Positions 2,453-42,879 of a stretch of 64,000 bases of DNA are shown piece after piece. Origin of the DNA: Myxococcota bacterium (GTDB lineage: Bacteria > Myxococcota > XYA12-FULL-58-9 > JALHOP01); contig JBGGMJ010000187.1 of NCBI GenBank assembly GCA_041288095.1, forward strand, positions 1-64,000, read 5' to 3'. Within the stretch, counting starts at the first letter, position 1; every line of letters starts with the position of its first letter. The notes beneath the pieces were generated by a model. It did not search any database. It worked only from the letters and a program-made list of their open reading frames with translations, and was not told the DNA's origin. The translations under genes and the position numbers were made by a program.

Positions 2453-2479
2453 GCAACGCTTTCGGCACTCGCCCGATAC
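2453..2479 (+). promoter_or_regulatory. sigma-28-like promoter GCAAC-N16-CGATAC
   Basis: GCAAC 2453-2457, CCCGATAC 2472-2479; same motif upstream of five other units. Confidence 0.55.
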
Positions 2480-2489
2480 TGGTCACACG

Positions 2490-2765
2490 ATGACCGAGTT
2501 AGAGGGAGCTTTTGCCGAGAAGCCGGCGACGACTGAGCGGCGCACGTATGTGGCGCTGCTCAACGACGTCCAGGCGGTCCAAGGCGAGCTCCATCCGGTC
2601 ATCGCCGACATGCCGTACGAGGCTCGCGTCGAGCTTCTGCGGCAGGCCAAGGAGGACGGCGTCGTCCTCGGCAAGGCTGAAATCGACGCGCATATGCAGG
2701 AGCTCGACGAGCGCATCGCCGTGGTGCGTCGCCTCGCCGCTCTGTTGAACCGGAGCACCCAATGA
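2490..2765 (+). CDS. small acidic hypothetical protein
   Basis: 91 aa ORF; ATGA overlap with the next gene. Confidence 0.65.
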   Translation: MTELEGAFAEKPATTERRTYVALLNDVQAVQGELHPVIADMPYEARVELLRQAKEDGVVLGKAEIDAHMQELDERIAVVRRLAALLNRSTQ

Positions 2766-3856
2766 TTCTCGACATCGCCTATCATCAGACCGCCGCCTTC
2801 CGCGCCCGCTCCGAAGCACGCGCCGACCGCCTTACCGCCAAAGCGGACAGGCCGACGCCACCCGCAGTCGACATCGAGGTCCTGCAAGCAGGCGCACGCA
2901 GCATCGGCCTCGACACCAAGCTCAAGGTGAAGCAAAGCGCCAGCGGCGCCGAAACCGTGATCACCGTGCGCAACGGCGACGTCACCAACATCGACGAGAT
3001 GATCCTCGCGCGTTTGCCGCGGATCGCCGACATGGTCCGCGCCAAGACGGGTTGGCCGCTCGACCTCGCGAACGTCACCTTCGAGTTCGCCGATGGCGCG
3101 ACCTGCCGCAAGCGCTCGCTTCAAGAAGCCGTGAAGCGCATCGGTATCGAAGATCCGTTCGCCAAGACCTCGTGGTGGTCGCGTATGCAGACCGCCGTCA
3201 TGTTGCGGATGATGCCACCGCCGGTCGCGGTGTGGCTCCCGAGCGAAGAGGTCATGATGTTCAACCTCGACGCCTTGAACAAAGTCGACGCCGACATGGC
3301 CTGCGAGATCACCTTCCACGAGCTCGTGCATACGGCGCAGGACCACCACGCGCCGGAGTTCTGCGAGAGCATCAACAAGCTCGCGGCCCAAGCCGTGCAA
3401 GTCCGCAAGGAGCGCGGCAAGCGCGACCCAGAGTATGTCGAGATCATGGACACGGTCGGCGCACGCATGGCGCTCATCGAGGGCCAGGCAACAGCGTTGC
3501 AGGCGGAAGCGAAAGCGGAAGCCTTTCCGAACGGCAAGCTGAACGTGACGGTCGGTGCCATCCTCCTGAGCCTTGGCTCGCTCGTGCTGTCCGCGAACCG
3601 CCGCAAGCTCATGCAATATCTCGCGGGCAGTGAGGCGTATAAGAAGATCCGCAACGAGCCAGAGCTCATCAAGGCCGTCTTCGCCAACCCATCGCTCTGT
3701 GACCTGATGCTGCGAACCCAAGGCAAGGTCACGGTGACGGTGCCGGCGGCGTCGGCCGACGAAGCCGCGACGCTCATCACCCCCCTCGTCAAGGCAAACG
3801 GGCGTGCTGGTCAGCTCGAAATCGAGCTCGCGCTCGCCGAGCCCAAAGCGGCCTGA
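2762..3856 (+). CDS. zincin-like metallopeptidase, no signal peptide
   Basis: FHELVHTAQ (HEXXH) and downstream MALIEGQA (third ligand E). Confidence 0.7.
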   Translation: MILDIAYHQTAAFRARSEARADRLTAKADRPTPPAVDIEVLQAGARSIGLDTKLKVKQSASGAETVITVRNGDVTNIDEMILARLPRIADMVRAKTGWPLDLANVTFEFADGATCRKRSLQEAVKRIGIEDPFAKTSWWSRMQTAVMLRMMPPPVAVWLPSEEVMMFNLDALNKVDADMACEITFHELVHTAQDHHAPEFCESINKLAAQAVQVRKERGKRDPEYVEIMDTVGARMALIEGQATALQAEAKAEAFPNGKLNVTVGAILLSLGSLVLSANRRKLMQYLAGSEAYKKIRNEPELIKAVFANPSLCDLMLRTQGKVTVTVPAASADEAATLITPLVKANGRAGQLEIELALAEPKAA

Positions 3857-3867
3857 GCGCCGCGTGA

Positions 3868-3888
3868 GCGGAGGCGACTTGCCTCCGC
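3868..3888 (+). terminator. GC-rich hairpin after the zincin gene
   Basis: GCGGAGGC-GACTT-GCCTCCGC; no U-tract. Confidence 0.35.
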
Positions 3889-3953
3889 GCCAACGCGTTA
3901 CCAACTCAGTGTAGGTCGTTCGAGGGCGACGACCGCTAGACACTGGGGTGTCA

Positions 3954-6080
3954 ATGGCGCGGCTGTCCAAGAACCTGCTGCCACTTGTGCTCGTCGTGCT
4001 TGCGAGCATCGCCACCTCGACGTCCGCGCGAGCGGGCATCATGGTCGTCGTCGCGCATCCGGATGACGACGTCATCATCGCCGCGGGAGTCATCCAGGCG
4101 GCGAGGCTGCGCGGTGAACAGGTCAATGTCGTCTACGTGACGAACGGTGAGCTGGTGGGCGGGCCGGTCACTGGGCTTGCGCGTCAGGGCGAGGCTGTCA
4201 ACGCCCAGAGCTTCCTCGGCGTCGGCGAGAACGCGCTCGTCTTCCTCGGCCATCCCGACAATCGGCTCTCCGATCTCTACTCGAACCCCGCGTTCGCGGA
4301 ACCCGGCGCCGTACTGACCACCGTGCACGGGCAATCCGTCACCTTCGGCAATCGCGGGCTCGGCCAAGCCGACTACCACCAGCACCGCTTCGGCATGCAC
4401 GCGTCCTTCAACAAGAAGAACTTCATCGCCGACCTCGTCGACGTCGTCGCCAAGTACCGGCCCACCCACGTGATCACGCACGCCGACTTCGACGTGCACC
4501 CCGACCACAAGACGGTGAGCATCGCGATCCGCGAGGCGATGAAGAGCGTCGCCGGCACGGACCCGAAATACGCCGCCACCCTCTTCCACGGTTTGGTTTG
4601 GAGCATCGACGCCAAGGGTTGGCCGCTGCCTCCCAACCCGACCACTTACCTCACGGAGCCGCCGGGTCTCGCTCCCACCGGCGTGCGCTGGGTCGATCGC
4701 CACAGCATCGACGTCCCGCGCACCATGCAAAACACGACGCCGGAGCTGAACACGAAGTACCTCGCCATGAACGCGCACGAGAGCCAGGGTGGCTCCGGCG
4801 CCTTCATCGGCAAGTCCATCCACCGAGACGAAGTCTTCTGGGCGGAGAACCCGCTCGGCAAGGACCGACCACCACGCGTCGACGCCGGCCAACCGCTCAC
4901 GGTCGCGCCCGGCGCCAAAGCGCAGCTCGACGGCTCGCGCAGCAGCGACCTCGACGGCCCGCTGACGTTCAAGTGGACACAGCGTGACGGCCCGCCAGTG
5001 GCGCTCGCTGGAGCGGACACGGCGAGGCCGAGTTTCACCGCTCCCGCGGACATCGCGAAAGACGAAGTGCTCAACTTCGCGCTCGTGGTCAGCGAAGGCG
5101 GGCTACAGAGCCTCGAGGACCGCGTCTCGGTGCTGGTCTCGGCGGGCGGAGGGCCCGCCGTTGCGTCCGCGAACATCGCGCCGCGGGCGAAGGTCACGGC
5201 GTCGTCCGCGAAGCCGGGACAAGAAGCACACAAGGTCGTCGACGAAATGGTCGGTGGCGCGCCCAAGGACCCTGGGCAGGAATGGGTGAGCGCCGGCGAG
5301 CGTACCGGCGCGTGGTTGCAACTCGAATGGGCGAGCCCGTTCACGGTGGACCGCATCGTCATGCACGACCGGCCAGGCCTCACCGACCACATCACCAAGG
5401 TGACCCTCGTCTTCGATGGCGGAGTGACGCGCGGCGAGGGTCCGCTCGACAACAGCGGCGCCGGCTCCGCGATTACCTTCCCGCCGGTCTCGACCAAGAC
5501 CCTGCGCGTCGTCATCGACGGCACGAGTCCCGAGACCACCGCGACGGGTCTCGCCGAGATCGTCGTGTACGGCGGCGCCACGCAAGATGGTGCCGCGGTC
5601 GCGGGCGCAAGCGACGGCAATATCGCCGCCCTCGCGAGCGTCAGCTCGTCGTCACCGGGTGGCGGCAGCATTCAAGACGCAACCAAGGCGGTCGACGGTG
5701 TCGTCGATGGTTGGCCGAACGACTTCAGCAAGGAGTGGGTCACCGCCGGCGAGCGCAGCGGCGCCTGGCTGCTCTTGGAATGGAGTGACGAGCACGTCAT
5801 CGATCGGGTGGTGCTCCATGACCGCGTGAACCCCTCCGACAACATCGCCAACGCGACGCTCGTCTTCGATGACGGCCCGCCGATCCGCACTGGCGCGCTG
5901 CCCGCGAACGGCACGGCGCGTGAAGTGAAGTTCCCGCCGGTGTCGGCGCGCAAGCTGCGCATCGCGCTGACCACGAGCGCCGGCACGCAAAACGCGGGGC
6001 TCGCGGAGCTCAAGGTCTACGAGAGCAAGCTGCCACCCGCCGCGCGAACAGCGGACAGCGGCTCACGTCGCCGTCGCTGA
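3954..6080 (+). CDS. secreted PIG-L family deacetylase with PKD-like and two discoidin/F5-8-like domains
   Basis: signal peptide ending ARA; AHPDDD, VTNGE and HPDH motifs; DAG...LDGSRSSDLDG..FKW PKD-like module; two NIA..A.V..SS...EW...GAWL modules. Confidence 0.85.
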   Translation: MARLSKNLLPLVLVVLASIATSTSARAGIMVVVAHPDDDVIIAAGVIQAARLRGEQVNVVYVTNGELVGGPVTGLARQGEAVNAQSFLGVGENALVFLGHPDNRLSDLYSNPAFAEPGAVLTTVHGQSVTFGNRGLGQADYHQHRFGMHASFNKKNFIADLVDVVAKYRPTHVITHADFDVHPDHKTVSIAIREAMKSVAGTDPKYAATLFHGLVWSIDAKGWPLPPNPTTYLTEPPGLAPTGVRWVDRHSIDVPRTMQNTTPELNTKYLAMNAHESQGGSGAFIGKSIHRDEVFWAENPLGKDRPPRVDAGQPLTVAPGAKAQLDGSRSSDLDGPLTFKWTQRDGPPVALAGADTARPSFTAPADIAKDEVLNFALVVSEGGLQSLEDRVSVLVSAGGGPAVASANIAPRAKVTASSAKPGQEAHKVVDEMVGGAPKDPGQEWVSAGERTGAWLQLEWASPFTVDRIVMHDRPGLTDHITKVTLVFDGGVTRGEGPLDNSGAGSAITFPPVSTKTLRVVIDGTSPETTATGLAEIVVYGGATQDGAAVAGASDGNIAALASVSSSSPGGGSIQDATKAVDGVVDGWPNDFSKEWVTAGERSGAWLLLEWSDEHVIDRVVLHDRVNPSDNIANATLVFDDGPPIRTGALPANGTAREVKFPPVSARKLRIALTTSAGTQNAGLAELKVYESKLPPAARTADSGSRRRR

Positions 6081-6100
6081 GCGCGCCCGCCCATTCACGC

Positions 6101-7588
6101 TTAGTCGGCCTTCGACGCCTTTTTCATCAGGTGCAGACCGGTGGCGTACACCTGCTTCTTGAAGAGCGCGTCGAAGTCGAAGCTCAAGCCCTCGCCTTCC
6201 TTCTTGAGGAACTCGAGGAACTGCTCCGTGGTGAAGACCTTCTTGGTGTACGCGTCGAAGAACTTCGTCAGCACCGGGCGCAAGCCGCCCTTCGGCGCGA
6301 AGACACTGTCGAGGTAAGCCATGACGCTCGCGCCGTGGCTGTAGGCGGCCTGGGGCGTGATGCGGTGCCATGCCGGGAAACCGGAGAGCTTGCGCGCGCT
6401 CCAGGGCTCCGAGCGTGAGGTCGGATAGCCGTTGTCGTGCCACGAGGCCAAGGCTTCGTCGATCCAACCGGCGTTGCCGTTCGCCGGCTGGGCCGAGCGC
6501 GCGAACCACTGGTGGTGCAGCTCGTGCTGCAATGCATTCAAGCTGGTCTCGGTGGCGCCCGAATACTCCATGCCGCCCGAGCCCGAGACCCGCACGAGGA
6601 CGCGTGGATGCGGATACGGAGCGATGTCCTTCTCGTGCTTGGCGAGCGCCTGCTTGGTGAGCTCGACGCCGCGGTGAGCGGCTTCCTCGGCGCTGAGGGG
6701 CACGTCGCCGTTAGGGACGGTCGGAGCCGGCGGCTTCAAACCAACGCCGTCGCCGAAGCGCTCGGGGAGCTTGCCGACGACGAGGTTACCGGGCGTGTAC
6801 ACCGTGATCGGGATCTGGGCGCCGGTGGAGCTCTTGAAGACGTCCTCGCTGATCGAGAAGCGCGCCGGATTGATGACGTTCAAGAAGAGTGACGCCGTGT
6901 TGTAGTGCGCCGGGAACGTGACCACGAGCTTGCCGTCGACCTTGCTCACCTCACCATTGCTCATGATGCGGTGCTCGGCCTGGGTGCCGCGGATGTCGAA
7001 CGTGATCGAGCCCGGGTACTGGTCGTACTCGAGGTTCGTGGGGAAGTACTGCTCGTCCATCGAGCGGTTGTCGAGATCGCTCTTGCGCGCGAAGAACTCG
7101 ACCGAGTCTCCGCTATAGCGAACACCGGCAGTGAGCTCGTATTCGACTTCGATGCGGTGCACGCCGGGCTCGAGCTCGACGCCGAGGACGCGGAAGTTCG
7201 ATTCGTTGCCGGGGTCGCGCACGTCGCTGTAGCTCGCCGGATCGACTTCCTTGCCGTCGACGACGACTTTGCTGGCGCGCGGCACCAGCTCGATGGCCGG
7301 CTGACCCTTCTCGGAAAGCTCGATTTCGACGACCGCTTTGACGGTGCTCTTCTTCGACGCGACGTCGAGGACCACCGTGCTGTCGACCTTCTTGATGTCT
7401 CCGAACACGACCGTCTTGCCGTTGACCTGGAAGGACGGCGGGGCATGCAAAGCCGCGTCCGAGCGTACGGACCGGCCAGCCGAGTAAGTGTCGACCGCGT
7501 CGCGGCGCACGGCCGGCTGGGCGGAAGCTTCGGACTGAGCGGGCGAAGACGTACGGGTAGCAGCTAGCAGCGGCTTGATGGCCTGCAT
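6101..7588 (-). CDS. M1 family aminopeptidase-like gluzincin, no signal peptide
   Basis: GGMEY (GAMEN-like) and HELHH-X18-E; S/T/A/P-rich N-terminus. Confidence 0.85.
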   Translation of the reverse strand: MQAIKPLLAATRTSSPAQSEASAQPAVRRDAVDTYSAGRSVRSDAALHAPPSFQVNGKTVVFGDIKKVDSTVVLDVASKKSTVKAVVEIELSEKGQPAIELVPRASKVVVDGKEVDPASYSDVRDPGNESNFRVLGVELEPGVHRIEVEYELTAGVRYSGDSVEFFARKSDLDNRSMDEQYFPTNLEYDQYPGSITFDIRGTQAEHRIMSNGEVSKVDGKLVVTFPAHYNTASLFLNVINPARFSISEDVFKSSTGAQIPITVYTPGNLVVGKLPERFGDGVGLKPPAPTVPNGDVPLSAEEAAHRGVELTKQALAKHEKDIAPYPHPRVLVRVSGSGGMEYSGATETSLNALQHELHHQWFARSAQPANGNAGWIDEALASWHDNGYPTSRSEPWSARKLSGFPAWHRITPQAAYSHGASVMAYLDSVFAPKGGLRPVLTKFFDAYTKKVFTTEQFLEFLKKEGEGLSFDFDALFKKQVYATGLHLMKKASKAD

Positions 7589-7657
7589 GACGACATCCGG
7601 ATTTTGAGGGTTTCGAAGAGATACGCGCCCGAGCGGACGCGTGATGGGCAGCGCCCA

Positions 7658-7685
7658 GTATCGAAGCCTGAGCCCTCGAGGTTGC
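7658..7685 (-). promoter_or_regulatory. sigma-28-like promoter GCAAC-N17-CGATAC
   Basis: minus strand gcaac ctcgagggctcaggctt cgatactgg; shares CGATACTGG with the 2474 site. Confidence 0.45.
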
Positions 7686-7707
7686 CGGAAACGACCGGAA
7701 ACTTGGG

Positions 7708-10194
7708 CTATCCGGACAAGCCGTCGCGAATGTCGTCGCAGCCCGGTTCATCGAAATCCTGGCCACAATAGAGCAAGGCGCAGATGCCGAGGGCGTTGAG
7801 CTCGTCCTCGCAGACGTTCTCGGCGCAAAGATCGGCGCCGCGCTCGCACTCGAGGAGCTCGTCGTACTCCTTGCCGCAGTTGCTCTCGGTCATGGCGTCG
7901 AGCCCGGCGCAGAACTCCTCACACTCGATGTTGTCGTCGGTGGTCTCTTCGCAGGCGTTGCCCTCTAGGCAGAGATCCTTGCAGTCCTTGCCGGCGCAGG
8001 CGGTGAGCGAGGCGAGGCCCAACATCGCGGTCATGATGGTCATGCGCATGCCGCGGCGAGATGCCCACAGCGCGATAGCCAAGGCAACGAGCGACGCGCT
8101 GGGCGCCCCGGTGGCGCAGCCGCGCTCCGGCGGGATGTAGACGCCGGGGGGAGTCGTTGGATCACCGCCGTTCGAGTCGGGATCGGCACCAGGATCCGCA
8201 TCGCCCGGTGGTGGCCCCCCGTCGGCTGTCGGCGTGTCGTCGCCGAGGACACAGGTCGCCGAGCAGCCATCGCCATCGCTGGTATTGCCGTCGTCGCAGG
8301 TCTCGCTACCGCGGACCACGCCGTCGCCGCAGACCACGAGCACGCGCACGCTCACGTCGTCGACGGCGACTCCCAAACCGACGACGGTGGTGTCCGAGGT
8401 CAACGCGTAGCTCACCGTGATGGTGCGTCCGGCGAATGCGCTGATGTCGGCGCGATACCCCCCCCACCCGGCCGCGCTCGCCACGACGACGCCGGGCTCA
8501 CCCACCGTCTGATGCACGCCCATGCCGATGTTGGCGTCGAGGTGCCGGAAGACCTCGCGGTCGGGCACCACACCGCCGACGTCCTCGACGGTCACGACCA
8601 ATGTGTCGAAGCTCGCGGACTCGATCTGATACTTCATCGCCCAGGTGAGCTCGATGGCGTCACTGTCGGGCACGACGATGGAGGGAGAGAGCAGGCGCTG
8701 GTTGGTATTGCTCCCGTAGGTGTTGTCGAGGTCCGTCTTCCAGCAGGCGACTCCGCTATTGCAATCATTGAGCGGCGGCGCCGTGGGCGTTCCGAGCTCC
8801 CATTCGTCGCCCGAGCCTCCGTGGGTCCAGCCGGCCGCCCCGCCTTCGAAGTCGGCCGTGTAGAACGGAGCTTCGCCTTCCGGCGCCGCCGCTTCGCAGA
8901 TGCGGATCGACCACGAGACCAGCGAGCCGGTGTTGTCGGCTGCGTCGTCGAACAGCGTGAGTGTCCACACCCCGCCCGCGTCTTGGCCGTCGAACCAGGA
9001 CAAACGGTAATAGGGCTCCGGCTGGAAGCGCAGGCCCTTGAGGACCGGTTGGTCGATCGGAAGCGCCGCTTCGTCGTCGAGGACGATGTTCATTTGCTCT
9101 TGTCCACCGCTGCCGCTAGCGCCGACGTCGGTCAGCAGCACCTTGGGAATGCCCGCTGGATCCGTGAGCGTGATGTCGAGGTCCTGCATCAGCGGATGGG
9201 TGAGCGTGATGGCAACGTCGAGGTCGGCGATACGCGGATGCCCCGGCACCGTGATCGACGACGTCAGCGAGCCCAGGTCCGCTATGACGACCGCTGTGGA
9301 GCTGCTGTACGTGGTGCAGGTTTCGCCCGGCGCCGCGGGCAACGGGAAGACCGTCGCGCTCACGCGATAGGTGTACGCCGGATCGCCGTTCACGACGCCC
9401 GCGTCGACGTACGCGTAGTAGGTGCCGGCGTCCTTCACCGTGACGAAGAGCGCTTCGGAATTCGGCGAGGCGCCGTTTGGGTCGTTGACGAGGATGGTCT
9501 GGTCAGCCGCGTCGCCGAAGAGACCGAAGGCCAAGCGGCCGTTCCACGTCGAGACGTCGCGCTCAGGATCGAGATCGAGGCTCAGGTAAACCGAGTCGCC
9601 CGCGTCGAGCTCGATGCTCCAAATGTCGAGATCGGAGTCCGGATCACGCGCTCCTTGCCCCCAACCGGATGTCAGCGGCGTCGCCGTGGCGGTGGTGCCG
9701 TTTGGTTCCTGCTCGGCGGCCGGCGCGCCGGTGCGAAGTTGAAAATAGAGGTCGTACGGCCGGATCTGATTGGTGCCGGGCCCGCGAACGCGCAGGTAAT
9801 ACGTACCGCTCGCCGGCAGGACGGCGCCGGCGATGGACGACGCAAGCGATGTCGCCGTGCCGTCGTCGGTGTCGGTCTCGATGACGGTCGTCCCGTCCGA
9901 GCCCACGAGCTCGAGCATGGTGTCGCCGCCGCTCGTGCTGATCGCCGTCATGGTGGCGGCGTAGACGACGTCGCCCGCCCCGCCAACGAAGCTGTAAACG
10001 TCGATGTCGGCGAGCGGGAGGATGGGCGCGCGTACGAACGCCGGGTTGGTGATTGGCGTCGCCTCCGCGATCGCGTCGTTGGGCTCGACCTCGGATAGCG
10101 CCTGACTCTCCGCGAACGGCCAGAGTCCCGCGCCATCGTGCTGACAGCCGCCTACGAAAAGCATCGCGAACGCCAACGCCGGTGACCTGCGCAT
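7708..10194 (-). CDS. surface lipoprotein: PPC domains, proprotein-convertase P domain, DUF4215 Cys repeat, MYXO-CTERM-like segment, in-frame Cys-rich lipoprotein tail
   Basis: MRRSPALAFAMLFVGGC lipobox; EVEPND/EQEPNG; ITLTHP..DLDITLT..GVWTLT..WSI; CGDGVV..ETCDDGN..DGDGCSATC; GCATGAPSASLVALAIALWASRR. Confidence 0.8.
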   Translation of the reverse strand: MRRSPALAFAMLFVGGCQHDGAGLWPFAESQALSEVEPNDAIAEATPITNPAFVRAPILPLADIDVYSFVGGAGDVVYAATMTAISTSGGDTMLELVGSDGTTVIETDTDDGTATSLASSIAGAVLPASGTYYLRVRGPGTNQIRPYDLYFQLRTGAPAAEQEPNGTTATATPLTSGWGQGARDPDSDLDIWSIELDAGDSVYLSLDLDPERDVSTWNGRLAFGLFGDAADQTILVNDPNGASPNSEALFVTVKDAGTYYAYVDAGVVNGDPAYTYRVSATVFPLPAAPGETCTTYSSSTAVVIADLGSLTSSITVPGHPRIADLDVAITLTHPLMQDLDITLTDPAGIPKVLLTDVGASGSGGQEQMNIVLDDEAALPIDQPVLKGLRFQPEPYYRLSWFDGQDAGGVWTLTLFDDAADNTGSLVSWSIRICEAAAPEGEAPFYTADFEGGAAGWTHGGSGDEWELGTPTAPPLNDCNSGVACWKTDLDNTYGSNTNQRLLSPSIVVPDSDAIELTWAMKYQIESASFDTLVVTVEDVGGVVPDREVFRHLDANIGMGVHQTVGEPGVVVASAAGWGGYRADISAFAGRTITVSYALTSDTTVVGLGVAVDDVSVRVLVVCGDGVVRGSETCDDGNTSDGDGCSATCVLGDDTPTADGGPPPGDADPGADPDSNGGDPTTPPGVYIPPERGCATGAPSASLVALAIALWASRRGMRMTIMTAMLGLASLTACAGKDCKDLCLEGNACEETTDDNIECEEFCAGLDAMTESNCGKEYDELLECERGADLCAENVCEDELNALGICALLYCGQDFDEPGCDDIRDGLSG

Positions 10195-10449
10195 CCTATC
10201 TCCCTGAAAAGTCGAGATCGCGGCGAAACATGCAGCTTGGGCACTTCCGATCGACGCAAACCCCTGACGCAATGTCGCGAGACCCAGCGCACGATATTGG
10301 GGAAGGACTTTGCGTGTCGAGCCTGGAAAACAGACGAAAAGCCGCAGTGCGACGCCCACATAGCGCACCCGGTTTTTCCTGACATTGGGGTTGACGACAA
10401 CTACCGAGAATCGTTATCTTCGCCATCCCCTAGGGAGTGTTTGAGAACC

Positions 10450-10635
10450 ATGACCATCCGAATTCGACCGATCACCGTGCAGCTCGATGACGACCGCGAA
10501 ATGGCGGCGCACTTGACGCCGACGTTGCTTGGCTCGCTCAAAGATGATGCTCCGGACGGGACCGCCCACGCCAAGCCCGGCACTGCCTGGCTGCGCTGGA
10601 GCAGCGCGAAACCGCAAAATCCCGGTCTCGACTAA
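10450..10635 (+). CDS. short hypothetical ORF or gene remnant
   Basis: GGGAG upstream; 61 aa; no recognisable motif. Confidence 0.3.
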   Translation: MTIRIRPITVQLDDDREMAAHLTPTLLGSLKDDAPDGTAHAKPGTAWLRWSSAKPQNPGLD

Positions 10636-11549: not shown

Positions 11550-11561
11550 TGTTCGAGTCCT

Positions 11562-11972
11562 CTAACGCTTGAGCCGTGCCAGCGTCTCGGCGTTGGCACG
11601 AATGAGCCGCGCCACGTCTTCCACGGGGACGCGCGCCGGGCAAATGGCGGCGATCTCGCGAGCGAGCTCGTCGAGGCGTTCAGCTCTGCCGAGCGCGAGA
11701 TTCGCCGTGGATGGCTCGCGAGCGTCCCGTGCGAGCCACTGCGACGGTGCTTCGTCCGGCAACGCTACCGCGTCGCAAAGGCCGCAGCCGATGCACCGGG
11801 ACGTACCGCCAACATAGCTCCAGAGCTGGTCCGGCACGGCGGCGAGGTCTTCGGTGGCGAGCTTCGCGAGCCACGGCTTGGGGCCGTGGTCGGGCAGCAC
11901 CGGCGCGAGGAAGACGCGGCGCAGCAGCGCCGTGCCGAGCACCATGCGAGCCTTGAACCAACGCATCATCAT
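11562..11972 (-). CDS. small 4Fe-4S ferredoxin-like protein in glpC position
   Basis: CIGCGLC ... ICP; ATGA overlap with glpB. Confidence 0.65.
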   Translation of the reverse strand: MMMRWFKARMVLGTALLRRVFLAPVLPDHGPKPWLAKLATEDLAAVPDQLWSYVGGTSRCIGCGLCDAVALPDEAPSQWLARDAREPSTANLALGRAERLDELAREIAAICPARVPVEDVARLIRANAETLARLKR

Positions 11973-16673: not shown

Positions 16674-16749
16674 TTATGCCCTCTCGAATGACGCGCGCGG
16701 ACCGTAGCAAAGGCGGGTCGCGAGGTCGAGAGAGGGGCGGACTGCCTCG

Positions 16750-29428: not shown

Positions 29429-29455
29429 GCACCGTCACGGGCGCGCTGACGATAT
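29429..29455 (+). promoter_or_regulatory. sigma-28-like promoter GCACC-N16-CGATAT
   Basis: matches the shared motif and spacing. Confidence 0.45.
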
Positions 29456-30532: not shown

Positions 30533-30559
30533 GCACGGGTCGCCCCGACTAGCCGAGAA
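30533..30559 (+). promoter_or_regulatory. sigma-28-like promoter GCAC-N15-GCCGAGAA
   Basis: matches the shared motif; ends 12 nt before ATG 30572. Confidence 0.5.
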
Positions 30560-34455: not shown

Positions 34456-36327
34456 ATGCTGCTCGCTGCGGCACTCCTGACGATCGACTCACTGGTGCGC
34501 GCGGCGTCACCTGTGGCCGCCGTCGTGCCCGATGCCGTGATCATCGACGAGGTTGCGGTGGTCGAGCTGACGGCGCGCGATGTCGACCCAGCGACGCACG
34601 CGTGGGTCGTCGAAGCCGGTGAGCTCGAGAGCATCGCCGGCGGCGCGGCCGAGGTTCGAGCGCGCTGGCGTCTACCGCTCGATGTGAAGCCGCGACGGCT
34701 GGCGGCGGCGCTCGTCGACTACGCGACGCCACGTGCGACGTTCGTCACCGTTCCCATCTCGCGGCGAGCACGCGTGCAAATCGAGGCGACGCCGCTTGCC
34801 CAGGTGAGTCTCTTCCTCGGCAACACCTTGGCCGCGTCGGGCACGACCGACGCTCAGGGCAAGCTCGAGCTGCGCGTCGTCGTGCCCCCCGCGAGCCTTT
34901 CCGCGCGTGTCGAGCAAACGACCCGGCGCGGTCAGGTCCCACCCCGCTTCGACCGTCTCGACGTCGCCGATGAGCTGCACGTCTTCACCGTGCCGATGGT
35001 GCGCACTCTCGTGCCCGACGGCGTGGCCAGCGCGCCGCTTGCGACCCTGGTCTACAGCGATGGGCAGTCCGCGGTCGACGCCGAGGTGAGCATCCGCGCC
35101 GCCGGCAAGGTGCTGCGCGCGACGCCGATCACCGCGCCTGGTGAGCGTGCCGCGCGGGTGTCCGCCGCCGCAGCGCACGCCGCCGCGGCGGATGCTCTCA
35201 CCATCATCACGCGCGCTGCCGCCGGCGAGCGCCACGCGGAGCACCGGGCGACGCTCATGTTCGCACCGCTGCCGGCGTCGACCCTCGAGGTGATAGCGCC
35301 CGCGGAGCCGTGGAGCGCGGGCGCCCCGATCGAGCTCGCGGCGACCGCCCGCGATGAGCTTGGACGCGCCGTTGCGACCGAGGTGAGCGTCATGGCCCTG
35401 CCGCCGCATGACGACCTCGTCATCGACGCCGGCGACGCGGCGCACGTCCGCTTGCGGGCACCGACGAACATCGACTCCGCGTTGACGCTCGAGGTGCGCG
35501 CGACGACGGCAGCGACAACGCGGCGGACCTTTCGCCTCGTCGCCGCCGAGCCCGCGACCGTGCGCCTCGAGCGCGCGGGGGATCATGGGTTCATGCTCGC
35601 GGTCGACGACGCCTTCGGCAATCCGAGCCCAGGGGTGACGCCCACTCTGGTGGCTGGGTCCGGCGAGGTCGAGGCGCTCGTAGAGACCGCGCCGGGACGC
35701 TGGCAGGGAGTATGGGTGCCCGCCATAGCGGACCAGCGCGAGGAGACGCGCCTCAACGCCTCCCTGCCCACGAGCAGCGCTGAGACGGTCATGCGTCACT
35801 ACGGCAGCGCCTGGGCGGTTCAGGTGAGCGGCTATGGCGGAGCGTTGGTCGGTCGCGGCTCCTTGCTCGGTGTCGGCGGCTTGGTCCTCGTCGAGGCGCG
35901 CCTGCCGAAGCTGCCGTCGCGGCTCAGCATCGATGCGGCCGCGGGCGGCTGGTACGCGGCGCGCGAACAAACCGCCGAGCCGGGACTCGCGGCGACGCGA
36001 CGTGCCGCCCTGGTGCCGCTAGGCCTCGGTGTGAGCTGGGAGATGCCGCTCGCGATCGGCTGGCGCTGCGACGTCGGAGTCATGGGCGGCGTGCTCCTCA
36101 CCAGTACGTCGACGACTGTACGCGAAAACGGTGTGACCGTCGCCGGCCCGCGGAGCCTGAAGGGAAGCACGGCACAGCTGACTCCCTGGGTGCGTGTCGG
36201 ACGGCAGGCCGGGCCGGGACTGGTCGCCGTCCTGGTGAGCGGCCTCATCGCGCTCGGCGGCGTCTCGACATGGACGGAACCGCCGCTGGTCGCCTCGCTG
36301 GCGCTGGGCTACGCTTGGGAACCATGA
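34456..36327 (+). CDS. exported protein with Ig-like segments and probable C-terminal outer-membrane beta-barrel
   Basis: hydrophobic N-terminus; ARDELGR and VDDAFGNP invasin-like motifs; amphipathic strands ending LALGYAW. Confidence 0.55.
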   Translation: MLLAAALLTIDSLVRAASPVAAVVPDAVIIDEVAVVELTARDVDPATHAWVVEAGELESIAGGAAEVRARWRLPLDVKPRRLAAALVDYATPRATFVTVPISRRARVQIEATPLAQVSLFLGNTLAASGTTDAQGKLELRVVVPPASLSARVEQTTRRGQVPPRFDRLDVADELHVFTVPMVRTLVPDGVASAPLATLVYSDGQSAVDAEVSIRAAGKVLRATPITAPGERAARVSAAAAHAAAADALTIITRAAAGERHAEHRATLMFAPLPASTLEVIAPAEPWSAGAPIELAATARDELGRAVATEVSVMALPPHDDLVIDAGDAAHVRLRAPTNIDSALTLEVRATTAATTRRTFRLVAAEPATVRLERAGDHGFMLAVDDAFGNPSPGVTPTLVAGSGEVEALVETAPGRWQGVWVPAIADQREETRLNASLPTSSAETVMRHYGSAWAVQVSGYGGALVGRGSLLGVGGLVLVEARLPKLPSRLSIDAAAGGWYAAREQTAEPGLAATRRAALVPLGLGVSWEMPLAIGWRCDVGVMGGVLLTSTSTTVRENGVTVAGPRSLKGSTAQLTPWVRVGRQAGPGLVAVLVSGLIALGGVSTWTEPPLVASLALGYAWEP

Positions 36328-37547
36328 GACGCGCGGCGCTTCTGGGTGCGGTCGTGCTGGGTGGGTGCTTCGCCGACGCGACCTCGCGCGTGGTCGCGGT
36401 CGATCCGACGAGCGGTGTGAACGACGCGAGCACGCCCATCACCATCTCGGGGCACCACCTCGACGTGGGAGTCGACGAGCGCTTCGACACCGAAGTGCTG
36501 AGCATCGATCGCTCTTACTCCGCGCGTCTGGGCGAGCGCGACCTCACCGACGTGCGCTGGATTGACACGCAGACCATCAGCGCCAGCGTTCCCGCGGGGC
36601 TTTTGCCGGGGACGTACGACTTGCTGGTCGTGGGACCGCGCCGCCGGCTCACGTTGCCGCGGGCGTTCACGGTCGTGTCAGAGGTCTTGCGCCAGGATTG
36701 CGCACCGGAAGCCACGCGCGTCGTCGACGCGGCGACGCTTGCTGCCGCCGTGAGCAGCGCCAACTCCAGCCCCGGAGAGCAGCAGATCTGTGTCGACGCG
36801 ATCATCACCCTCACGGCGACCCTCACCATGACAGACGATCTCGTGCTTTACGGCACGCCGCGCGGCGCCTTGGCTGGTGACGGGCTGGCTCCGGGCGCGA
36901 CCGGGCTAGTCATCGACGGCGGTGACGTGCGTATCGAGGATCTGCGCTTCACGACCTTCTCCACGCTGGCGGTGGAATCCGATAGCGGCACCTTGGTCGT
37001 GCGGCGCAGCGTCTTCGTCGACTGCACCGAGGCGATCGATGGGAACACGCAGATCGAAGTCGATCGGTGCACTTTCGACGGCGGCAACGGCGCCGCCATC
37101 CGCGCCAGCAGCGTGCGCGGCGCGGTCGTTCGCATTCACCACAACATCGTCGCCAATCACGCGCGCGCCGTGCAGGTCGACGACCTCGACGAGATCCGCA
37201 TCGACAACAACACCTTCCACCGTCTGACGGACGACGCCTTGCGTGTCGACTTCGTCGCCGCGGTTCGTGTCCGCAATAACATCTTCAACCTGTTCACAGG
37301 TGATGCCGCCGAGCTCCCGGGCTCGACCATGGCCGAGCCGGCCACCGCGAACGCGCTCACCCCGGCAGTGGCCTGCTCGTCGTGCATCTTCGGCGCCGGC
37401 AACCCCGTGGTCGACTGCCGCCTCACCGATCCGGACAACGGCGATTTCACGCTGGATGCGACGAGCCCATGCATCGATGCCGGGGTCGATGTAGGCTCGT
37501 TGTTCGAGGGAGCAGCTCCGGATCTAGGGGCGCTCGAGAGCCGATGA
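36324..37547 (+). CDS. lipoprotein with IPT/TIG-like domain and right-handed beta-helix (choice-of-anchor-Q-like end)
   Basis: lipobox LGGC; TPITISG, GLLPGTYDL, NNTF..RNNIF, GDFTL..SPCIDAG and APDLGALE motifs; ATGA coupling. Confidence 0.75.
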   Translation: MRRAALLGAVVLGGCFADATSRVVAVDPTSGVNDASTPITISGHHLDVGVDERFDTEVLSIDRSYSARLGERDLTDVRWIDTQTISASVPAGLLPGTYDLLVVGPRRRLTLPRAFTVVSEVLRQDCAPEATRVVDAATLAAAVSSANSSPGEQQICVDAIITLTATLTMTDDLVLYGTPRGALAGDGLAPGATGLVIDGGDVRIEDLRFTTFSTLAVESDSGTLVVRRSVFVDCTEAIDGNTQIEVDRCTFDGGNGAAIRASSVRGAVVRIHHNIVANHARAVQVDDLDEIRIDNNTFHRLTDDALRVDFVAAVRVRNNIFNLFTGDAAELPGSTMAEPATANALTPAVACSSCIFGAGNPVVDCRLTDPDNGDFTLDATSPCIDAGVDVGSLFEGAAPDLGALESR

Positions 37548-37578: not shown

Positions 37579-38229
37579 ATGGCAACGTCCATATCGCGGC
37601 AGGTGTCTGCGACCGAGTGCGCAACTGTGCGATCTGGCGAGGGTGCGGGAGATCAACGTGTGGTGCGTGGCACACCTGAGTGGGAGCGCGATTGCGTCGA
37701 GCGCAGCCGCCGCGGCGACGAGGACGCGTTCGGCGAGCTCCTGGCCACCTACCAGAGCCGTGTGTTCAGCCTTGTGGCGCGTTGGGTGGGACGGCGGGAC
37801 GAAGCCCACGAGCTCACACAGGAGGCGTTCTTGATCGCCTTTCGCGAACAGGAGCGCTTCGACGTGACGCGGCCATTTCGACCCTGGCTGCTCAAGATTG
37901 CCGTCAATGTCTGCCGCAACCACATGCGCCGCCACGCGCGCCGCGAAGTTCCCCACAGCCCCGAGCCTGTGAGTCAGGGCTTGTGGCAGCTCGCCGAGCC
38001 GACCCCCGAAGCCTCGGCGGCCCAACGCGCCGAAGGCCGCCGCCTCGCCGCTGCGATGCAAGAGCTCAGCACCGACGATCGCACCATCCTGCTGCTACGC
38101 TTTCGTGAGGACCTGCCGTACGAGGAGCTTGCTGTCGTGCTAGGTCGGCCACAGACCCTGCTCAAAGTGCGTGTCCACCGCGCCTTGAAACGCCTGCGGC
38201 GCATGCTCGAACAGGAGCCGGCGCCATGA
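37579..38229 (+). CDS. ECF RNA polymerase sigma factor
   Basis: GDEDAFGEL, ELTQEAFL, FRPWLLKIAVN and LPYEELA..VRVHRAL motifs; true start may be downstream. Confidence 0.93.
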   Translation: MATSISRQVSATECATVRSGEGAGDQRVVRGTPEWERDCVERSRRGDEDAFGELLATYQSRVFSLVARWVGRRDEAHELTQEAFLIAFREQERFDVTRPFRPWLLKIAVNVCRNHMRRHARREVPHSPEPVSQGLWQLAEPTPEASAAQRAEGRRLAAAMQELSTDDRTILLLRFREDLPYEELAVVLGRPQTLLKVRVHRALKRLRRMLEQEPAP

Positions 38230-39233
38230 GCAGCCCAACCGACGATCAGGTGCGCAAAGCGCTGCGTAGCCTCGAGTCACTCACGCCCGACCGCGATCTG
38301 GTCGAAGCAGCGCGCATGCGTCATCGCGCGGAGCAGACGCGAGTCAAGCGGCCGCGTCGTGCCTGGCCCTTGCTGGTGCTCGGTGGCGGCGTCGCCGCCG
38401 TTGCGGCGTTGCTGGTGGCGATTGCCCCGCTACCGCGTCACCCCGAGGGTCAGTCCGCGATAGCGACGCTAGTCGTCCTCGAGGTCCAGGGCACGGCATG
38501 GCAAGGAGAAGGCGCCGCGCGGGTCGCGCTCCACCCTGGAGACCACGTCCGCCGCGATACCGCCTTCAGCACCGACGACGGCGCGCGTGCCACCTTTCTC
38601 GATGCCGGCGCGAGCGCGCTCACCCTGAGCGAAGCCTCGCGAGCGCGCTGGCTCACCGCCGAAGCGGACGCGAGCCGGGTCGAGGTCGAGCACGGCGTCA
38701 TGCGCATCGATGCGAAGAGCGCGGTGATTCCGCTGGTCGTGACCATCGCCGGCGCGAGCGAGGCATTGCGCATCGAGGCTGGGAGCCTGGGCGTCGTCGC
38801 CGGCTCGGGCACGGGGAGCTTCGCGGTGCTCGAGGGAGAAGCGTTGCTCACCCGCGGGGCGGCAGCCGAAACCATCAAGCGCGGCCGAGAAGTGGTCGCG
38901 CGCCGCGACGCCACCGAAGCCGTCGCAACCGAGCTGCGCCTCACCCTGGCGTCGGTCGGTGCGCTCACGAGTGCCACGCAGAGCGTGGTGGTGAGCGGCG
39001 AGACGCGACCCGGAGTGCTCGTCACCATCAACGGTGTCGACGCGCTGGTCGACGCCGAGGGTCGCTTCTCGGCGAAGATCACCCTCACGGCATCCACGCG
39101 TCGCATCGTCATCATCGCGCGTGACGCTCTCGACCGCTCCCGCCGCGCCGTGCTCGCGGTGCAGCGGCCGGTGCGCGAGCCGCGCGAGCGCCCAGCCGAG
39201 ACGCACTGGCAGTGGGAGCGCACTCCGGGCTGA
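38226..39233 (+). CDS. FecR-like anti-sigma factor with C-terminal Ig-like domain
   Basis: single TM; FecR-like T..GARA....GA..LTL.E.S and VLEGEA; VSGETRPG..VTING...DAEGRFS; ATGA overlap with the sigma gene. Confidence 0.75.
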   Translation: MSSPTDDQVRKALRSLESLTPDRDLVEAARMRHRAEQTRVKRPRRAWPLLVLGGGVAAVAALLVAIAPLPRHPEGQSAIATLVVLEVQGTAWQGEGAARVALHPGDHVRRDTAFSTDDGARATFLDAGASALTLSEASRARWLTAEADASRVEVEHGVMRIDAKSAVIPLVVTIAGASEALRIEAGSLGVVAGSGTGSFAVLEGEALLTRGAAAETIKRGREVVARRDATEAVATELRLTLASVGALTSATQSVVVSGETRPGVLVTINGVDALVDAEGRFSAKITLTASTRRIVIIARDALDRSRRAVLAVQRPVREPRERPAETHWQWERTPG

Positions 39234-40399: not shown

Positions 40400-41992
40400 A
40401 TGATCACCACTGAAGGCCTTTCGTTAGCGTACGGCAGACGCGTCCTGTTCGAGTCTGTTTCGGTAAAGCTCACCCCCGGGAACTGCTACGGGCTCATCGG
40501 TGCCAACGGCGCCGGCAAGTCGTCGTTCCTGAAGATCCTGGCAGGAGAGATCGAGCCCAGCGCGGGTAAAGTCTCCGTCCCCAAGGGTCTGCGCATGAGC
40601 GTGCTCAAGCAGGATCACTACGCCTTCGACGAGGTGACCGCGCTCGACACCGTGATCATGGGCCACCATCATCTCCACGAGCTGATGCGCGCCAAGGACG
40701 CGCTCTACGCCAAGCCCGATTTCAACGACGATGACGGGCTGCGCGTCTCCGAGCTCGAGGCCGAGTTCACCGACCTCGGTGGCTGGGATGCCGAAACCAA
40801 CGCGGCGCAGCTCCTGAGCAGTCTCGGCATCGCCACCGAGCAACACCGCCGTCTGATGAAGGAGCTCTCGGGCAATGAGAAGGTGCGCGTGCTTCTCGCG
40901 CAGGCGCTCTTCGGTGATCCCGAGATCTTGCTGATGGACGAGCCGACCAACCATCTCGACGTCGCCTCCATCCTCTGGCTCGAGGAGTTCTTGGCGGAGT
41001 TCAAGAACACCGTCGTCGTCGTCTCCCACGACCGGCACTTCTTGAACAACGTCTGCACGAACATCGCCGACATCGACTTTCAAAAGGTGCAGCTCTACAC
41101 CGGCAACTACGAGTTTTGGTACGAGTCGAGTCAGCTCGCGCTCAAGCAGAGCCGCGAGCAAAACAAGAAGACCGAAGACAAGATGAAGGAGCTGCAGGAG
41201 TTCGTCAGGCGCTTCAGCGCCAACGCCTCCAAGTCGCGGCAAGCCACTTCACGCAAGAAGGTCCTGGAGAAGCTGGACCTCGCCGAGATCAAACCATCCT
41301 CGCGCAAGTATCCGCACATCATCTTCCGAGACATGAAGGAGCTCGGCAAGGACGTCCTCACCGTGACCGGGCTTGCCAAGGCTCTCGAGCAGCCACTGCT
41401 CGACAAGGTCAGCTTCAACGTCGGCCGCGGGGAAAAGGTCGCGGTGGTGGGCGACGACCAAGCGGTTTCGGTCTTGCTGCGCACGCTGGCGGGTGAAGAC
41501 AAGCCGGACAAGGGCGAAGTGCGCTGGGGTCAGTCGGTCGCCTTGGGTTACATGCCGAGCGACAACGCGCGGTACTTCAACTCGCAGCTGAACCTCATCG
41601 ACTGGCTCCGCCAGTACTCCGAGGAGCAGAGCGAAAACTTCATCCGAACCTATCTCGGCCGGATGTTGTTTTCCGGCGAGGAATCGTTGAAGCCGGTCTC
41701 GGTGTTGTCAGGCGGCGAGCGCGTGCGCTGCATGCTCGCAAAGGCCATGCTGCTCGCGCCCAACGTGCTCTTGCTCGACCAGCCAACCGGCCACCTCGAT
41801 CTCGAATCCATCACCGCGCTCAACGACGCGCTGATCGCTTATCAAGGCACGGTCATCTTCGGTTCGCACGACGTGCAGTTTGCCCAGAGCCTGGCGACAC
41901 GCGTCGTCGAGGTCACGCCGACACGCTTCACCGACCTCGCGATGAGCTACGACGAGTACATGGATCGCACGAAGGCCGCGCAGCAATCCTAA
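40400..41992 (+). CDS. ABC-F family ATPase (YbiT/YkpA-like)
   Basis: GANGAGKS, DEPTNHLD, SHDRHFL, ANASKSRQATSR linker, second NBD LSGGE; no TM segments. Confidence 0.93.
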   Translation: MITTEGLSLAYGRRVLFESVSVKLTPGNCYGLIGANGAGKSSFLKILAGEIEPSAGKVSVPKGLRMSVLKQDHYAFDEVTALDTVIMGHHHLHELMRAKDALYAKPDFNDDDGLRVSELEAEFTDLGGWDAETNAAQLLSSLGIATEQHRRLMKELSGNEKVRVLLAQALFGDPEILLMDEPTNHLDVASILWLEEFLAEFKNTVVVVSHDRHFLNNVCTNIADIDFQKVQLYTGNYEFWYESSQLALKQSREQNKKTEDKMKELQEFVRRFSANASKSRQATSRKKVLEKLDLAEIKPSSRKYPHIIFRDMKELGKDVLTVTGLAKALEQPLLDKVSFNVGRGEKVAVVGDDQAVSVLLRTLAGEDKPDKGEVRWGQSVALGYMPSDNARYFNSQLNLIDWLRQYSEEQSENFIRTYLGRMLFSGEESLKPVSVLSGGERVRCMLAKAMLLAPNVLLLDQPTGHLDLESITALNDALIAYQGTVIFGSHDVQFAQSLATRVVEVTPTRFTDLAMSYDEYMDRTKAAQQS

Positions 41993-42001
41993 ACAAAGAC
42001 A

Positions 42002-42051
42002 GATCGACCAGGAACCTTCTTGCGCAGGTCGTTGATTCGCCTGATCGATCA
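42002..42051 (-). repeat. dispersed repeat copy 2 with an imperfect inverted partner
   Basis: GATCGACCAGGAACCTTCT 42002-42020; CCTGATCGATCA 42040-42051. Confidence 0.75.
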
Positions 42052-42056
42052 AGTCC

Positions 42057-42806
42057 CTACCTGACTTGGCTGCTCCGAGGATCGAACGCGCCCGCCCAGG
42101 GATAAGCCGAGCCAAATGGCTTAGGGCACTCGCGCCACTCGATTTCCCCCTTCGTAGGGTCGAAGACCGCGGCCCAGGGTGCCTCATCGTAGGCACCGCG
42201 CTTCCACTCGAGCGCGCCCTTCGCGGGGTTGAAGGCAGCGGTCCAGGGGAGAACTTTTCCAAAGTCGTACTCCGCCCGCTTCCATTCGACCTTGCCGGTG
42301 GTTGGGTCGAACGCGCCACCGAACGGGTAGATGTAGTTGTTGATGTTCTTGGCCTTGACCCACTCGAGCTCGCCCTTCACTGGATTGAAGACGCCGCTCC
42401 ACGGATAAACGTAGCCGTTGACGTTCTCCGCCTCGCGCCAGACCACCTCGCCCTTTATCGGATCGAATACGCCGGTCCACGGACGGGGGTCGTCGAGACG
42501 GAATTCGGCCTGCTTCCACTCGACCGTTCCTTTGACCGGGTCAAAAGCCGCCGCCCAGGGAAGAGCCGGGCCAATCTTGCCCCGCGAAGCCTGCCGCCAT
42601 TGCGGAGCACCGCTTGGACCAGCGCCAGGCCTCAAGCCGTACGTCGACTCGATCCAGGCATCGATCTGGGCGTCGCTGAGCTTCGAGCCGAGCGTCTTCA
42701 AACGCTGCTTGAGGGCGGTGGGCCAAGCAGGCACGGTCGCCGAGCCGGCCACGGTACCGTGAACGTTCGAGACTCCGCGCGCAAACCCCGTGCGTTCAAA
42801 TTGCAT
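42057..42806 (-). CDS. hypothetical Trp-rich tandem-repeat protein, no signal peptide
   Basis: 7 copies (last truncated) of a ~26 aa PWxxxF(D/N)PxKGxxEW unit. Confidence 0.75.
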   Translation of the reverse strand: MQFERTGFARGVSNVHGTVAGSATVPAWPTALKQRLKTLGSKLSDAQIDAWIESTYGLRPGAGPSGAPQWRQASRGKIGPALPWAAAFDPVKGTVEWKQAEFRLDDPRPWTGVFDPIKGEVVWREAENVNGYVYPWSGVFNPVKGELEWVKAKNINNYIYPFGGAFDPTTGKVEWKRAEYDFGKVLPWTAAFNPAKGALEWKRGAYDEAPWAAVFDPTKGEIEWRECPKPFGSAYPWAGAFDPRSSQVR

Positions 42807-42852
42807 GCGTCGATCCTACGAGGCTTCCGCGCCGGATTGGCGCCAGGGCTGT

Positions 42853-42879
42853 GAATCGGCCCACAGGCGCAGAAGTTTC
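42853..42879 (-). promoter_or_regulatory. sigma-28-like promoter GAAA-N15-GCCGATTC
   Basis: minus strand gaaac ttctgcgcctgtgg gccgattc. Confidence 0.55.

Follow-up and report, generated by a model that had tools for sequence, protein, structure and literature searches.

In Pseudomonas syringae and Erwinia, the sigma factor HrpL, a member of the extracytoplasmic function (ECF) group, recognises GGAACC-N15/16-CCACNNA (the hrp box), which marks the genes of type III secretion system (T3SS) effectors. Its regulon consists of scattered, fast-evolving, signal-less genes behind a short ECF-type tag, some of them with a small upstream open reading frame (ORF), and we propose a similar arrangement, with another motif and in another phylum, for a locus of a Myxococcota bacterium; T3SS dependence and translocation are proven for HrpL, whereas the products described here are hydrolases known from their sequence. 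The promoters read by Bacillus subtilis sigma-M, sigma-X and sigma-W belong to the ECF type that has 'AAC' in the -35 box, and ECF sigma factors are very numerous in Myxococcota. The -35 box of sigma-28 promoters takes the forms TAAA and TCAAG. The locus is a stretch of 64,000 nucleotides (nt) (contig JBGGMJ010000187.1 of assembly GCA_041288095.1, positions 1 to 64,000; hereafter the window), in which the bipartite motif GCAAC-N16/17-CGATA lies ahead of three gene units encoding a small ORF with a HEXXH protein, an M1-like peptidase and a class-3 lipase-like protein. We favour, with modest confidence, the reading that this motif is a promoter class of an ECF-type sigma factor driving fast-evolving, signal-less and plausibly exported hydrolases.

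For sigma-D of Corynebacterium glutamicum, a validated ECF sigma factor, the reported promoter consists of GTAAC(A/G) and a GAT -10 box (PMC6338062). The sigma-D promoters reported for Corynebacterium and Mycobacterium are, like the motif here, bipartite with an 'AAC' -35 box and a '(C)GAT' -10 box, GTAAC and GCAAC being one base apart. The regulon described there belongs to another phylum, serves cell-envelope functions (mycolate, peptidoglycan) and includes its own anti-sigma gene, whereas no sigma or anti-sigma gene carrying the motif was found in the sequence analysed here, and conservation of the -10 box extends to CGATA.

In Bdellovibrio bacteriovorus, 92 of 140 attack-phase promoters are reported as TTAAG-N16-CCGATA, and the genes that they drive include proteases (PMC3627812). 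This FliA regulon, as reported, resembles the set described here in its -10 core, in its spacing and in the use of an alternative sigma factor to drive non-flagellar genes including proteases, and the M1-like enzyme family is common to this lineage and to Bdellovibrio-like organisms. It differs in its -35 box, TTAAG against GCAAC here, and neither fliA nor flagellar genes were seen among the 45 window ORFs covered by our family and domain scan; in addition, the M1-like orthologues of Bdellovibrionota start with Sec-like N-termini and are not preceded by such a promoter (0/71).

A non-Sec machine for prey lysis is described in the same phylum: Myxococcus xanthus combines Kil (Tad-like) with a needle-less T3SS (T3SS*) needed for prey lysis, the effectors of which are still called hypothetical, and the Kil/T3SS* pair appears, in that review, restricted to one myxobacterial suborder (PMC12428579). 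Since T3SS* effectors are described there as hypothetical, signal-less lytic enzymes match the type of cargo sought; no kil or sct gene was found in the window, and no link of the motif to this machinery is known. Bradymonabacteria are reported to carry T3SS export-apparatus genes that are upregulated during predation (PMC7460792).

The motif and its conservation

The window has a G+C content of 66% and was split by its gene map into 58,449 coding and 5,551 intergenic bases (~9% non-coding). Expected motif counts were obtained from dinucleotide shuffles of the sequence (100 or 200). The exact form GCAAC-N16/17-CGATAC occurs three times, at 2453-2479 (+), 7658-7685 (-) and 17464-17490 (+) (sites 1, 2 and 3), against a shuffle mean of 0.03 and with 0/100 shuffles reaching three copies; all three are intergenic. 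When the motif is shortened to its 10-base core, GCAAC-N16/17-CGATA, three intergenic matches and none in coding sequence are retrieved (shuffle mean 0.115; 0/200 shuffles reach 3). Sites 1, 2 and 3 each face a start codon, located 10, 69 and 45 nt past the -10 box, respectively. Beyond the two boxes and the string CGATACYGG, we found no similarity, repeat or mobile element in common between the three sites, and no occurrence of GCAAC-N15/16/17 strings was found in the literature.

Related loci were retrieved by a contig search using a 34-sequence alignment of the M1-like protein as a query, yielding a total of 80 loci. Three of them are close relatives, L001 and L003 (85% identity) and L002 (75%), all metagenome-assembled genomes (MAGs), of which two are labelled Myxococcota and one Bdellovibrionales; together they span 56.7 kb. 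Synteny with window positions ~1-20,000 was seen in L001 and L003, and the AspRS of the close relatives is ~96% identical to that of the window. Pfam and PHROGs scans of the relatives were limited to selected ORFs of L001 and L003. The core motif has 3 matches in L001, 1 in L002 and 4 in L003, against shuffle means of 0.075, 0.035 and 0.060, and only 2 matches were found in the 1.18 Mb of the remaining 77 loci. All eight sites in the relatives lie upstream of an ORF that has no signal peptide and are oriented to it.

Alignment of the individual promoters shows two fixed boxes in variable surroundings. Upstream of the M1-like gene, all four genomes have TTTCYGGCAAC-N16/17-CGATA(C/A) with diverged spacers and flanks, the invariant window positions (42/175) including GGCAAC and CGATA. 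The lipase promoter has orthologues in L001 at 1928-1953 (-), with CGATAT as its -10 box, and in L003 at 390-415 (-), again with diverged spacers, and the promoter of the HEXXH protein operon has a counterpart in L003 at 19292-19317 (-), with the same boxes, a diverged spacer and the same ten bases between -10 box and ATG. Because the boxes stay fixed while spacers and flanks diverge, we read these sites as a promoter footprint: by comparison with three relatives, the sequences indicate that the bipartite promoter is under selection. The observations show a motif that departs from chance, lies in intergenic DNA in the correct orientation and is conserved.

The genes behind the promoter are exchanged between the same genomes, and the motif is found upstream of five different gene units across the four of them. 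In L001, a promoter at 12017-12042 (-), whose spacer is visibly homologous to that of site 1, precedes an unrelated ORF of 139 amino acids (aa) instead of the HEXXH protein operon. An extra exact site in L003 leads to a gene pair of 146 aa and 441 aa, which replaces most of a neighbouring 886-aa secreted protein. None of these new cargo proteins (139, 146 and 441 aa) matched a Pfam family, and no paralogy was detected among the motif-linked proteins.

Two of the exchanged regions show further changes. A comparison of L003 7586-9860 with window 7708-10368 shows that all that is left in L003 of the secreted 886-aa protein (PPC/P-domain) is an ORF of 124 aa, Cys-rich and lipoprotein-like, with a match to just the C-terminus of the longer protein, and the motif-driven pair fills the space on the opposite strand; the 886-aa gene is entirely missing from L001. 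Past the PIG-L orthologue, L001 carries at 15437-21485 an HNH endonuclease, a terminase-large-subunit-like fragment and a PHROG 11698 member, and these phage-like genes occupy the spot of the HEXXH protein operon of the window, which suggests a mobile element at this variable position.

The initial annotation had proposed one motif shared by six sites. All six strings do occur where, and in the orientation in which, it placed them, but within the window only the strict form carried by sites 1-3 exceeds chance, and the loose form that also admits three further sites (sites 4-6) occurs at the background rate. A degenerate pattern fitting all six retrieved 24 matches for 23.4 expected, a count reached by 47/100 shuffles. 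One mismatch to the core is seen in 11 coding matches and 1 intergenic match (1.04 intergenic matches expected from the coding rate), and two mismatches in 115 and 8 (10.9 intergenic expected). The intermediate pattern G.AAC-N16/17-CGAT gave 7 matches for 4.5 expected, 4/7 of them intergenic.

The gene units behind the motif

Site 2 (GCAAC-N17-CGATAC, 7658-7685, -) lies 69 nt upstream of the ATG at 7588 of a gene (6101-7588, -) encoding a 495-aa protein that, judged by its modelled fold and motifs, is a two-domain zinc peptidase of the M1 family. It carries GGMEY, HELHH and E378, arranged as HEXXH-X18-E, and the residues G338 G339 M340 E341 Y342, H355 E356 H359 and E378 are invariant in all 34 aligned sequences. 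The Pfam Peptidase_M1 score lies below the cut-off (25.4 bits vs 27.7), so we consider the protein a divergent member; an aminopeptidase N profile gave a match with an E-value of 2.4e-9. The structural model (mean predicted local distance difference test score, pLDDT, 81.9; residues 1-46 below 50) retrieved with Foldseek the two-domain M1 peptidases of Deinococcus radiodurans 6koz_B (E=1.2e-20) and 6a8z_A (E=5.5e-20), with TM-scores of 0.51-0.52 by query and 0.57 by target. These share with it the two-domain fold, the HEXXH-X18-E arrangement and a GXMEN-type motif (GGMEY in the window protein), and they differ from it by their ~16% identity and by the absence of two low-confidence segments, an N-terminal extension of ~48 residues and a Pro/Gly-rich insert. 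This insert of ~27 residues (269-295) is specific to the clade and is not present in any of the 27 Bdellovibrionota-type homologues of the alignment.

The N-termini divide the M1-like family in the same way: the 27 Bdellovibrionota-type homologues have short hydrophobic Sec-like N-termini, and the 7 members of this clade carry extensions rich in S/T/P/A, of ~48 residues or more. Outside this lineage the family is almost confined to Bdellovibrio-like organisms (Bacteriovoracaceae, Halobacteriovorax, Oligoflexia), and the enzyme is therefore shared between predatory lineages. A few of the M1-like loci are titled as unrelated taxa (Sulfitobacter, Flavobacteriaceae and Polynucleobacter MAGs), which may be binning errors.

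In site 1 (GCAAC-N16-CGATAC, 2453-2479, +), 10 nt separate the end of the -10 box from the ATG at 2490, and the mRNA would therefore be nearly leaderless. The site precedes a small ORF (2490-2765, +; 91 aa, isoelectric point 4.96), the stop codon of which overlaps the start of a gene (2762-3856, +) encoding a signal-less HEXXH protein of 364 aa (hereafter the zincin). The open frame holding the small ORF (2451-2765) has a position-specific GC of 0.73/0.40/0.79, typical of coding DNA, and its product is 81% identical in L003; library scans found no Pfam or other family for it, and to call it a chaperone or an inhibitor would be a guess. Small ORFs head two of the motif-driven units, that of the zincin (91 aa) and that of the 441-aa protein of L003 (146 aa). 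The zincin has a HELVH motif and a downstream EGQA, and the region around HEXXH gave weak matches to YgjP-like (E=0.0064) and WLM (E=0.14) families. Its family is rare, with 44 representatives among 1.84 billion proteins, and in a 25-sequence alignment the N-termini are variable and P/S/A-rich, with no hydrophobic signal by eye. A profile search for its taxonomic range gave 3 proteins only, and no atlas match scored above 0.88.

Site 3 (GCAAC-N16-CGATAC, 17464-17490, +) lies 45 nt upstream of the ATG at 17536 of a gene (17536-18747, +) for a 403-aa class-3 lipase-like alpha/beta hydrolase, with an N-terminus of ~33 variable residues and without a signal peptide. Pfam Lipase_3 scored 22.8 bits against a cut-off of 22, and Foldseek retrieved the Rhizomucor and Rhizopus lipases (E ~1e-5) from a poor model (mean pLDDT 55) in which residues ~140-390 are usable. 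In the nucleophile motif, SNSLG (SNSLGG in the protein), the first G of GXSXG is replaced, and the triad's Asp and His were not located. All 5 homologues found are from this lineage (72-82% identical). On the models, the two-domain M1 fold is as assigned, and the class-3 lipase fold is a tentative assignment. Next to this promoter, the leader (17368-17423) of a minus-strand gene encoding a secreted 205-aa protein (16750-17367) has 47/56 columns invariant in three genomes while the rest has diverged; this leader showed no unusual structure (folding z-score 0.25) and no Rfam match.

The absence of Sec signals that had been noted for the products of all six sites is borne out. As a crude proxy for a signal peptide we used a hydrophobicity index, defined as the maximum 12-residue Kyte-Doolittle mean over the first ~50 residues, and no N-terminal hydrophobic stretch was found in the six products. 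These and the motif-linked products of the relatives range from 0.44 to 1.42, with the small 146-aa ORF of L003 as the sole hydrophobic exception (2.09), against 1.85-2.96 for four neighbouring secreted proteins or lipoproteins. The N-termini of the M1-like protein and of the lipase evolve 2-4 times faster than the remaining sequence, a property that is not specific to T3SS substrates: identities are 21-67% in the N-terminus vs 64-87% elsewhere for the former, and 12-30% vs 72-83% for the latter. Residues 1-46 of the M1-like protein are, from the model, probably disordered; this, like the lack of hydrophobic N-termini, is not specific to T3SS substrates either. Of the products, the M1-like protein alone fits the rules known for T3SS N-termini of P. 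syringae; as these were not devised for this phylum, they were given no weight.

The three further sites were each inspected. Their products had been labelled fairly, as a Peptidase_M4_C protein (E=2.3e-9), a protein with a HEXXH motif and a protein with Trp-containing repeats. Site 4 (GCACC-N16-CGATAT, 29429-29455, +), before the M4-like gene (29497-30276), has a single mismatch, at the otherwise invariant A of 'AAC', and one-mismatch matches being at background rate, its membership is not supported. Site 5 (GCACG-N16-CGAGAA, 30533-30559, +), before the HEXXH protein gene at 30572-31753, has 4 mismatches to the 10-base core and fits the chance-level loose pattern alone; it was rejected. Site 6 (GAAAC-N16-CGATTC, 42853-42879, -), before the Trp-repeat protein gene (42057-42806), has 2 mismatches, and since it keeps 'AAC' and 'CGAT' it is a possible but unproven member.

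Around sites 4 and 5 we noted two further genes. A 6S RNA gene (Rfam RF00013, 65.1 bits) lies at 29126-29334 (-), just upstream of the M4-like gene, and site 4 is 95 nt from its 5' end. Between the M4-like and HEXXH genes, a gene at 30282-30497 (+) encodes a small DNA-binding protein of the VF530/DUF2132 family (Pfam E=3.1e-32), so that site 5 falls in the 74-nt gap behind it. Elsewhere, the window encodes a DUF4215 Cys-rich repeat protein, RNase Y, FG-GAP and TSP3 proteins, RelA and AspRS, genes that indicate an uncultured Myxococcota member. ARAGORN called an 87-nt tRNA-Ile at 58110-58196 (-), within a PilZ-domain gene (57894-58445); as Rfam gives no confirmation, this call is probably a false positive.

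The sigma factor, the route of the products and rival readings

Under the ECF reading that we favour, a single alternative sigma factor of the sigma-70 family, most likely of the ECF type (group 4), would read sites 1-3 by recognising GCAAC as the -35 and CGATA as the -10 box, 16-17 nt apart. It would control a small regulon of co-expressed units, namely the 91-aa ORF with the HEXXH zincin, the two-domain M1 peptidase and the class-3 lipase, whose genes would be lineage-specific and fast-turning-over and whose products would do without Sec signals. In sister genomes the same promoter would drive other signal-less units at the same chromosomal spots, and the products would act outside the cytoplasm, delivered by a non-Sec route using their fast-evolving, probably disordered N-termini. 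A co-regulated set of exported hydrolases scattered among core genes had been suggested before; what survives is a promoter-marked set among core genes, of three units and not six.

The three sites of the window and the eight of L001-L003 make 11 in all, and the -35 box GCAAC and the -10 core CGATA are each present in 11/11; the base before the core is C in 6/11 (CCGATA), the sixth base is C, A or T, and eight sites have a spacer of 16 nt, the other three one of 17 nt. Neither box repeats the other, and both keep a constant orientation to the gene. Because they are asymmetric, 16-17 nt apart and always face the gene, they point to a sigma-type promoter rather than a regulator site, and it is very probable that sites 1-3 represent a real alternative-sigma promoter class. 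Three ECF promoter features are found together: 'AAC' in the -35 box, as in boxes of the GGAAC, GTAAC or GAAAC type; a -10 box starting with CG(T/A); and a spacing of 16-17 nt. An invariant -35 'AAC' being the ECF hallmark, an ECF-type sigma is favoured over a sigma-28-like one: judging from the sequence, the former fairly probably reads the motif and the latter is an unlikely reader, the rest of the probability falling to other sigma classes.

Two other promoter types were considered. No sigma-70-like consensus was found in the three intergenic regions of sites 1-3, and a housekeeping sigma-70 promoter was rejected. A sigma-54 reading was also rejected, as GGCAAC is confined to the M1-like promoters and no TTGC was seen by inspection at the -12 distance.

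The window contains one ECF sigma gene (37579-38229, +; Sigma70_r2 and r4_2 domains, ECF superfamily model TIGR02937), overlapped by an anti-sigma-like gene (38226-39233, +; weak FecR match). The pair, on which the initial annotation was silent, is located downstream of two large secreted-looking genes (34456-37547), and a TGTAACC string is found ~25 nt before the annotated start of the ECF gene. We regard it as context rather than as the demonstrated cognate sigma: no GCAAC...CGATA precedes either 37579 or 34456, where the operon may begin.

Several observations weigh against the ECF reading and its extension to exported hydrolases. The sole ECF pair of the window lacks the motif expected under autoregulation, which lowers the case for ECF membership and does not exclude it, as the cognate sigma may lie elsewhere; no motif-bearing sigma gene having been found, the ECF assignment is drawn from the shape of the motif only. 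The -10 box CGATA, with five conserved bases, is at least as sigma-28-like as ECF-like. Conservation is partly shared ancestry because the relatives are close by their AspRS, and L002, the most independent support, speaks for one promoter only. Three signal-less proteins stand behind sites 4-6 without the strict motif, so the link between the motif and 'signal-less hydrolases' is not general. No secretion-system gene was found among the 45 scanned ORFs of the 64 kb, M1 aminopeptidases are cytoplasmic in many bacteria, and export of the products is something that we infer from their sequence. Delivery by a non-Sec route fits because the N-termini are fast-evolving and of low confidence, Sec-like N-termini have been replaced and the cargo turns over; on these sequence features we put it forward tentatively, as somewhat short of probable.

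The rival reading that survives best keeps the same alternative-sigma promoter and places the products inside the cell, as a stress, starvation or developmental regulon for protein or lipid turnover. The products carry no recognised export signal of any kind, no secretion-system gene is nearby, SprT/YgjP-like zincins are, like M1 aminopeptidases, commonly cytoplasmic, and ECF regulons are typically stress regulons. Against this, the closest outgroup homologues of the M1-like protein have Sec-like N-termini, and the family would therefore be ancestrally extracytoplasmic; the cargo behind the promoter turns over rapidly between genomes whose proteins are 85% identical, and this turnover, together with long, variable, low-confidence N-termini, suits antagonism or effector genes better than housekeeping. 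We regard an intracellular regulon as rather unlikely.

We give a somewhat lower standing to the proposal that a sigma-28 (FliA/WhiG-like, group 3) reads the motif and that a flagellar-type or needle-less T3SS gate exports the products by way of their N-termini, which would parallel the FliA-run attack-phase programme of Bdellovibrio. The initial annotation had seen FliA geometry in the motif, and this part stands for the spacing (GCAAC-N15/16-NCGATA) and for the -10 core: all 11 sites agree with the CGA core of the sigma-28 -10 box GCCGATAA, and CGATA, often as CCGATA, matches the reported B. bacteriovorus promoter in sequence and spacing (PMC3627812). The near restriction of the M1-like family to Bdellovibrio-like predators, the fast-evolving, low-confidence N-termini and the T3SS export-apparatus genes reported in predatory Myxococcota (PMC7460792, PMC12428579) would also agree with it. 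The -35 box does not: GCAAC, invariant in 11/11 sites, has just the central 'AA' in common with TAAA(G), TTAAG or TCAAG. Upstream of the Bdellovibrionota M1-like orthologues, no sigma-28-like site was found in 71 regions, with no properly spaced TTAAG or TAAA near any CGATA, and CGATA itself occurs in 12/71, which does not exceed its background of 0.26 per 350 nt; there is therefore no sign of an inherited FliA link. As had been stated for sigma-28 and T3SS genes, the 45 window ORFs include no flagellar, chemotaxis, fliA or sct gene, the 56.7 kb of the relatives having been partly scanned. We consider this combination of sigma-28 and T3SS improbable.

Finally, a transcription-factor binding site, or a chance or inherited sequence without function, is very improbable: some conservation is expected by descent between close relatives, but three exact sites were found for 0.03 expected, all intergenic, with boxes that are fixed while spacers and flanks diverge, that are identical before non-homologous genes and that are asymmetric and gene-facing at 16-17 nt, regulator sites being commonly dyads or direct repeats.

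Possible implications for contact-dependent killing in Myxococcota

The pattern described here is that of a short, very specific and conserved motif before lineage-specific, signal-less genes that are swapped between close relatives, a pattern typical of antagonism or effector genes, and one member comes from an enzyme family of Bdellovibrio-like predators, in which it has a normal secretion signal. If the products are cytoplasmic, this would be an ordinary lineage-specific sigma regulon. If the regulon is as it looks, the co-regulated set would emerge from a simple search for the tag across these genomes, which would also point to the sigma factor and to the export machine.

By analogy with HrpL, a further and more speculative view, which we hold to be unlikely as it stands, is that GCAAC-N16/17-CGATA could be the 'hrp-box' of a predatory Myxococcota lineage, tagging an arsenal of non-Sec, contact-delivered lytic enzymes. 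A dedicated sigma factor would read the tag, for which ~0.1 chance matches are expected per 64 kb, and every member of the rapidly exchanging arsenal would carry it; the machine would be a contractile injection system or else T3SS*-like or Tad/Kil-linked, the N-termini would serve as delivery signals and the small upstream ORFs as chaperones or inhibitors. In Myxococcota, the effectors of contact-dependent killing machines are so far described as hypothetical (PMC12428579), and, if this view is true, their long-sought cargo could be listed by scanning these genomes for the tag.

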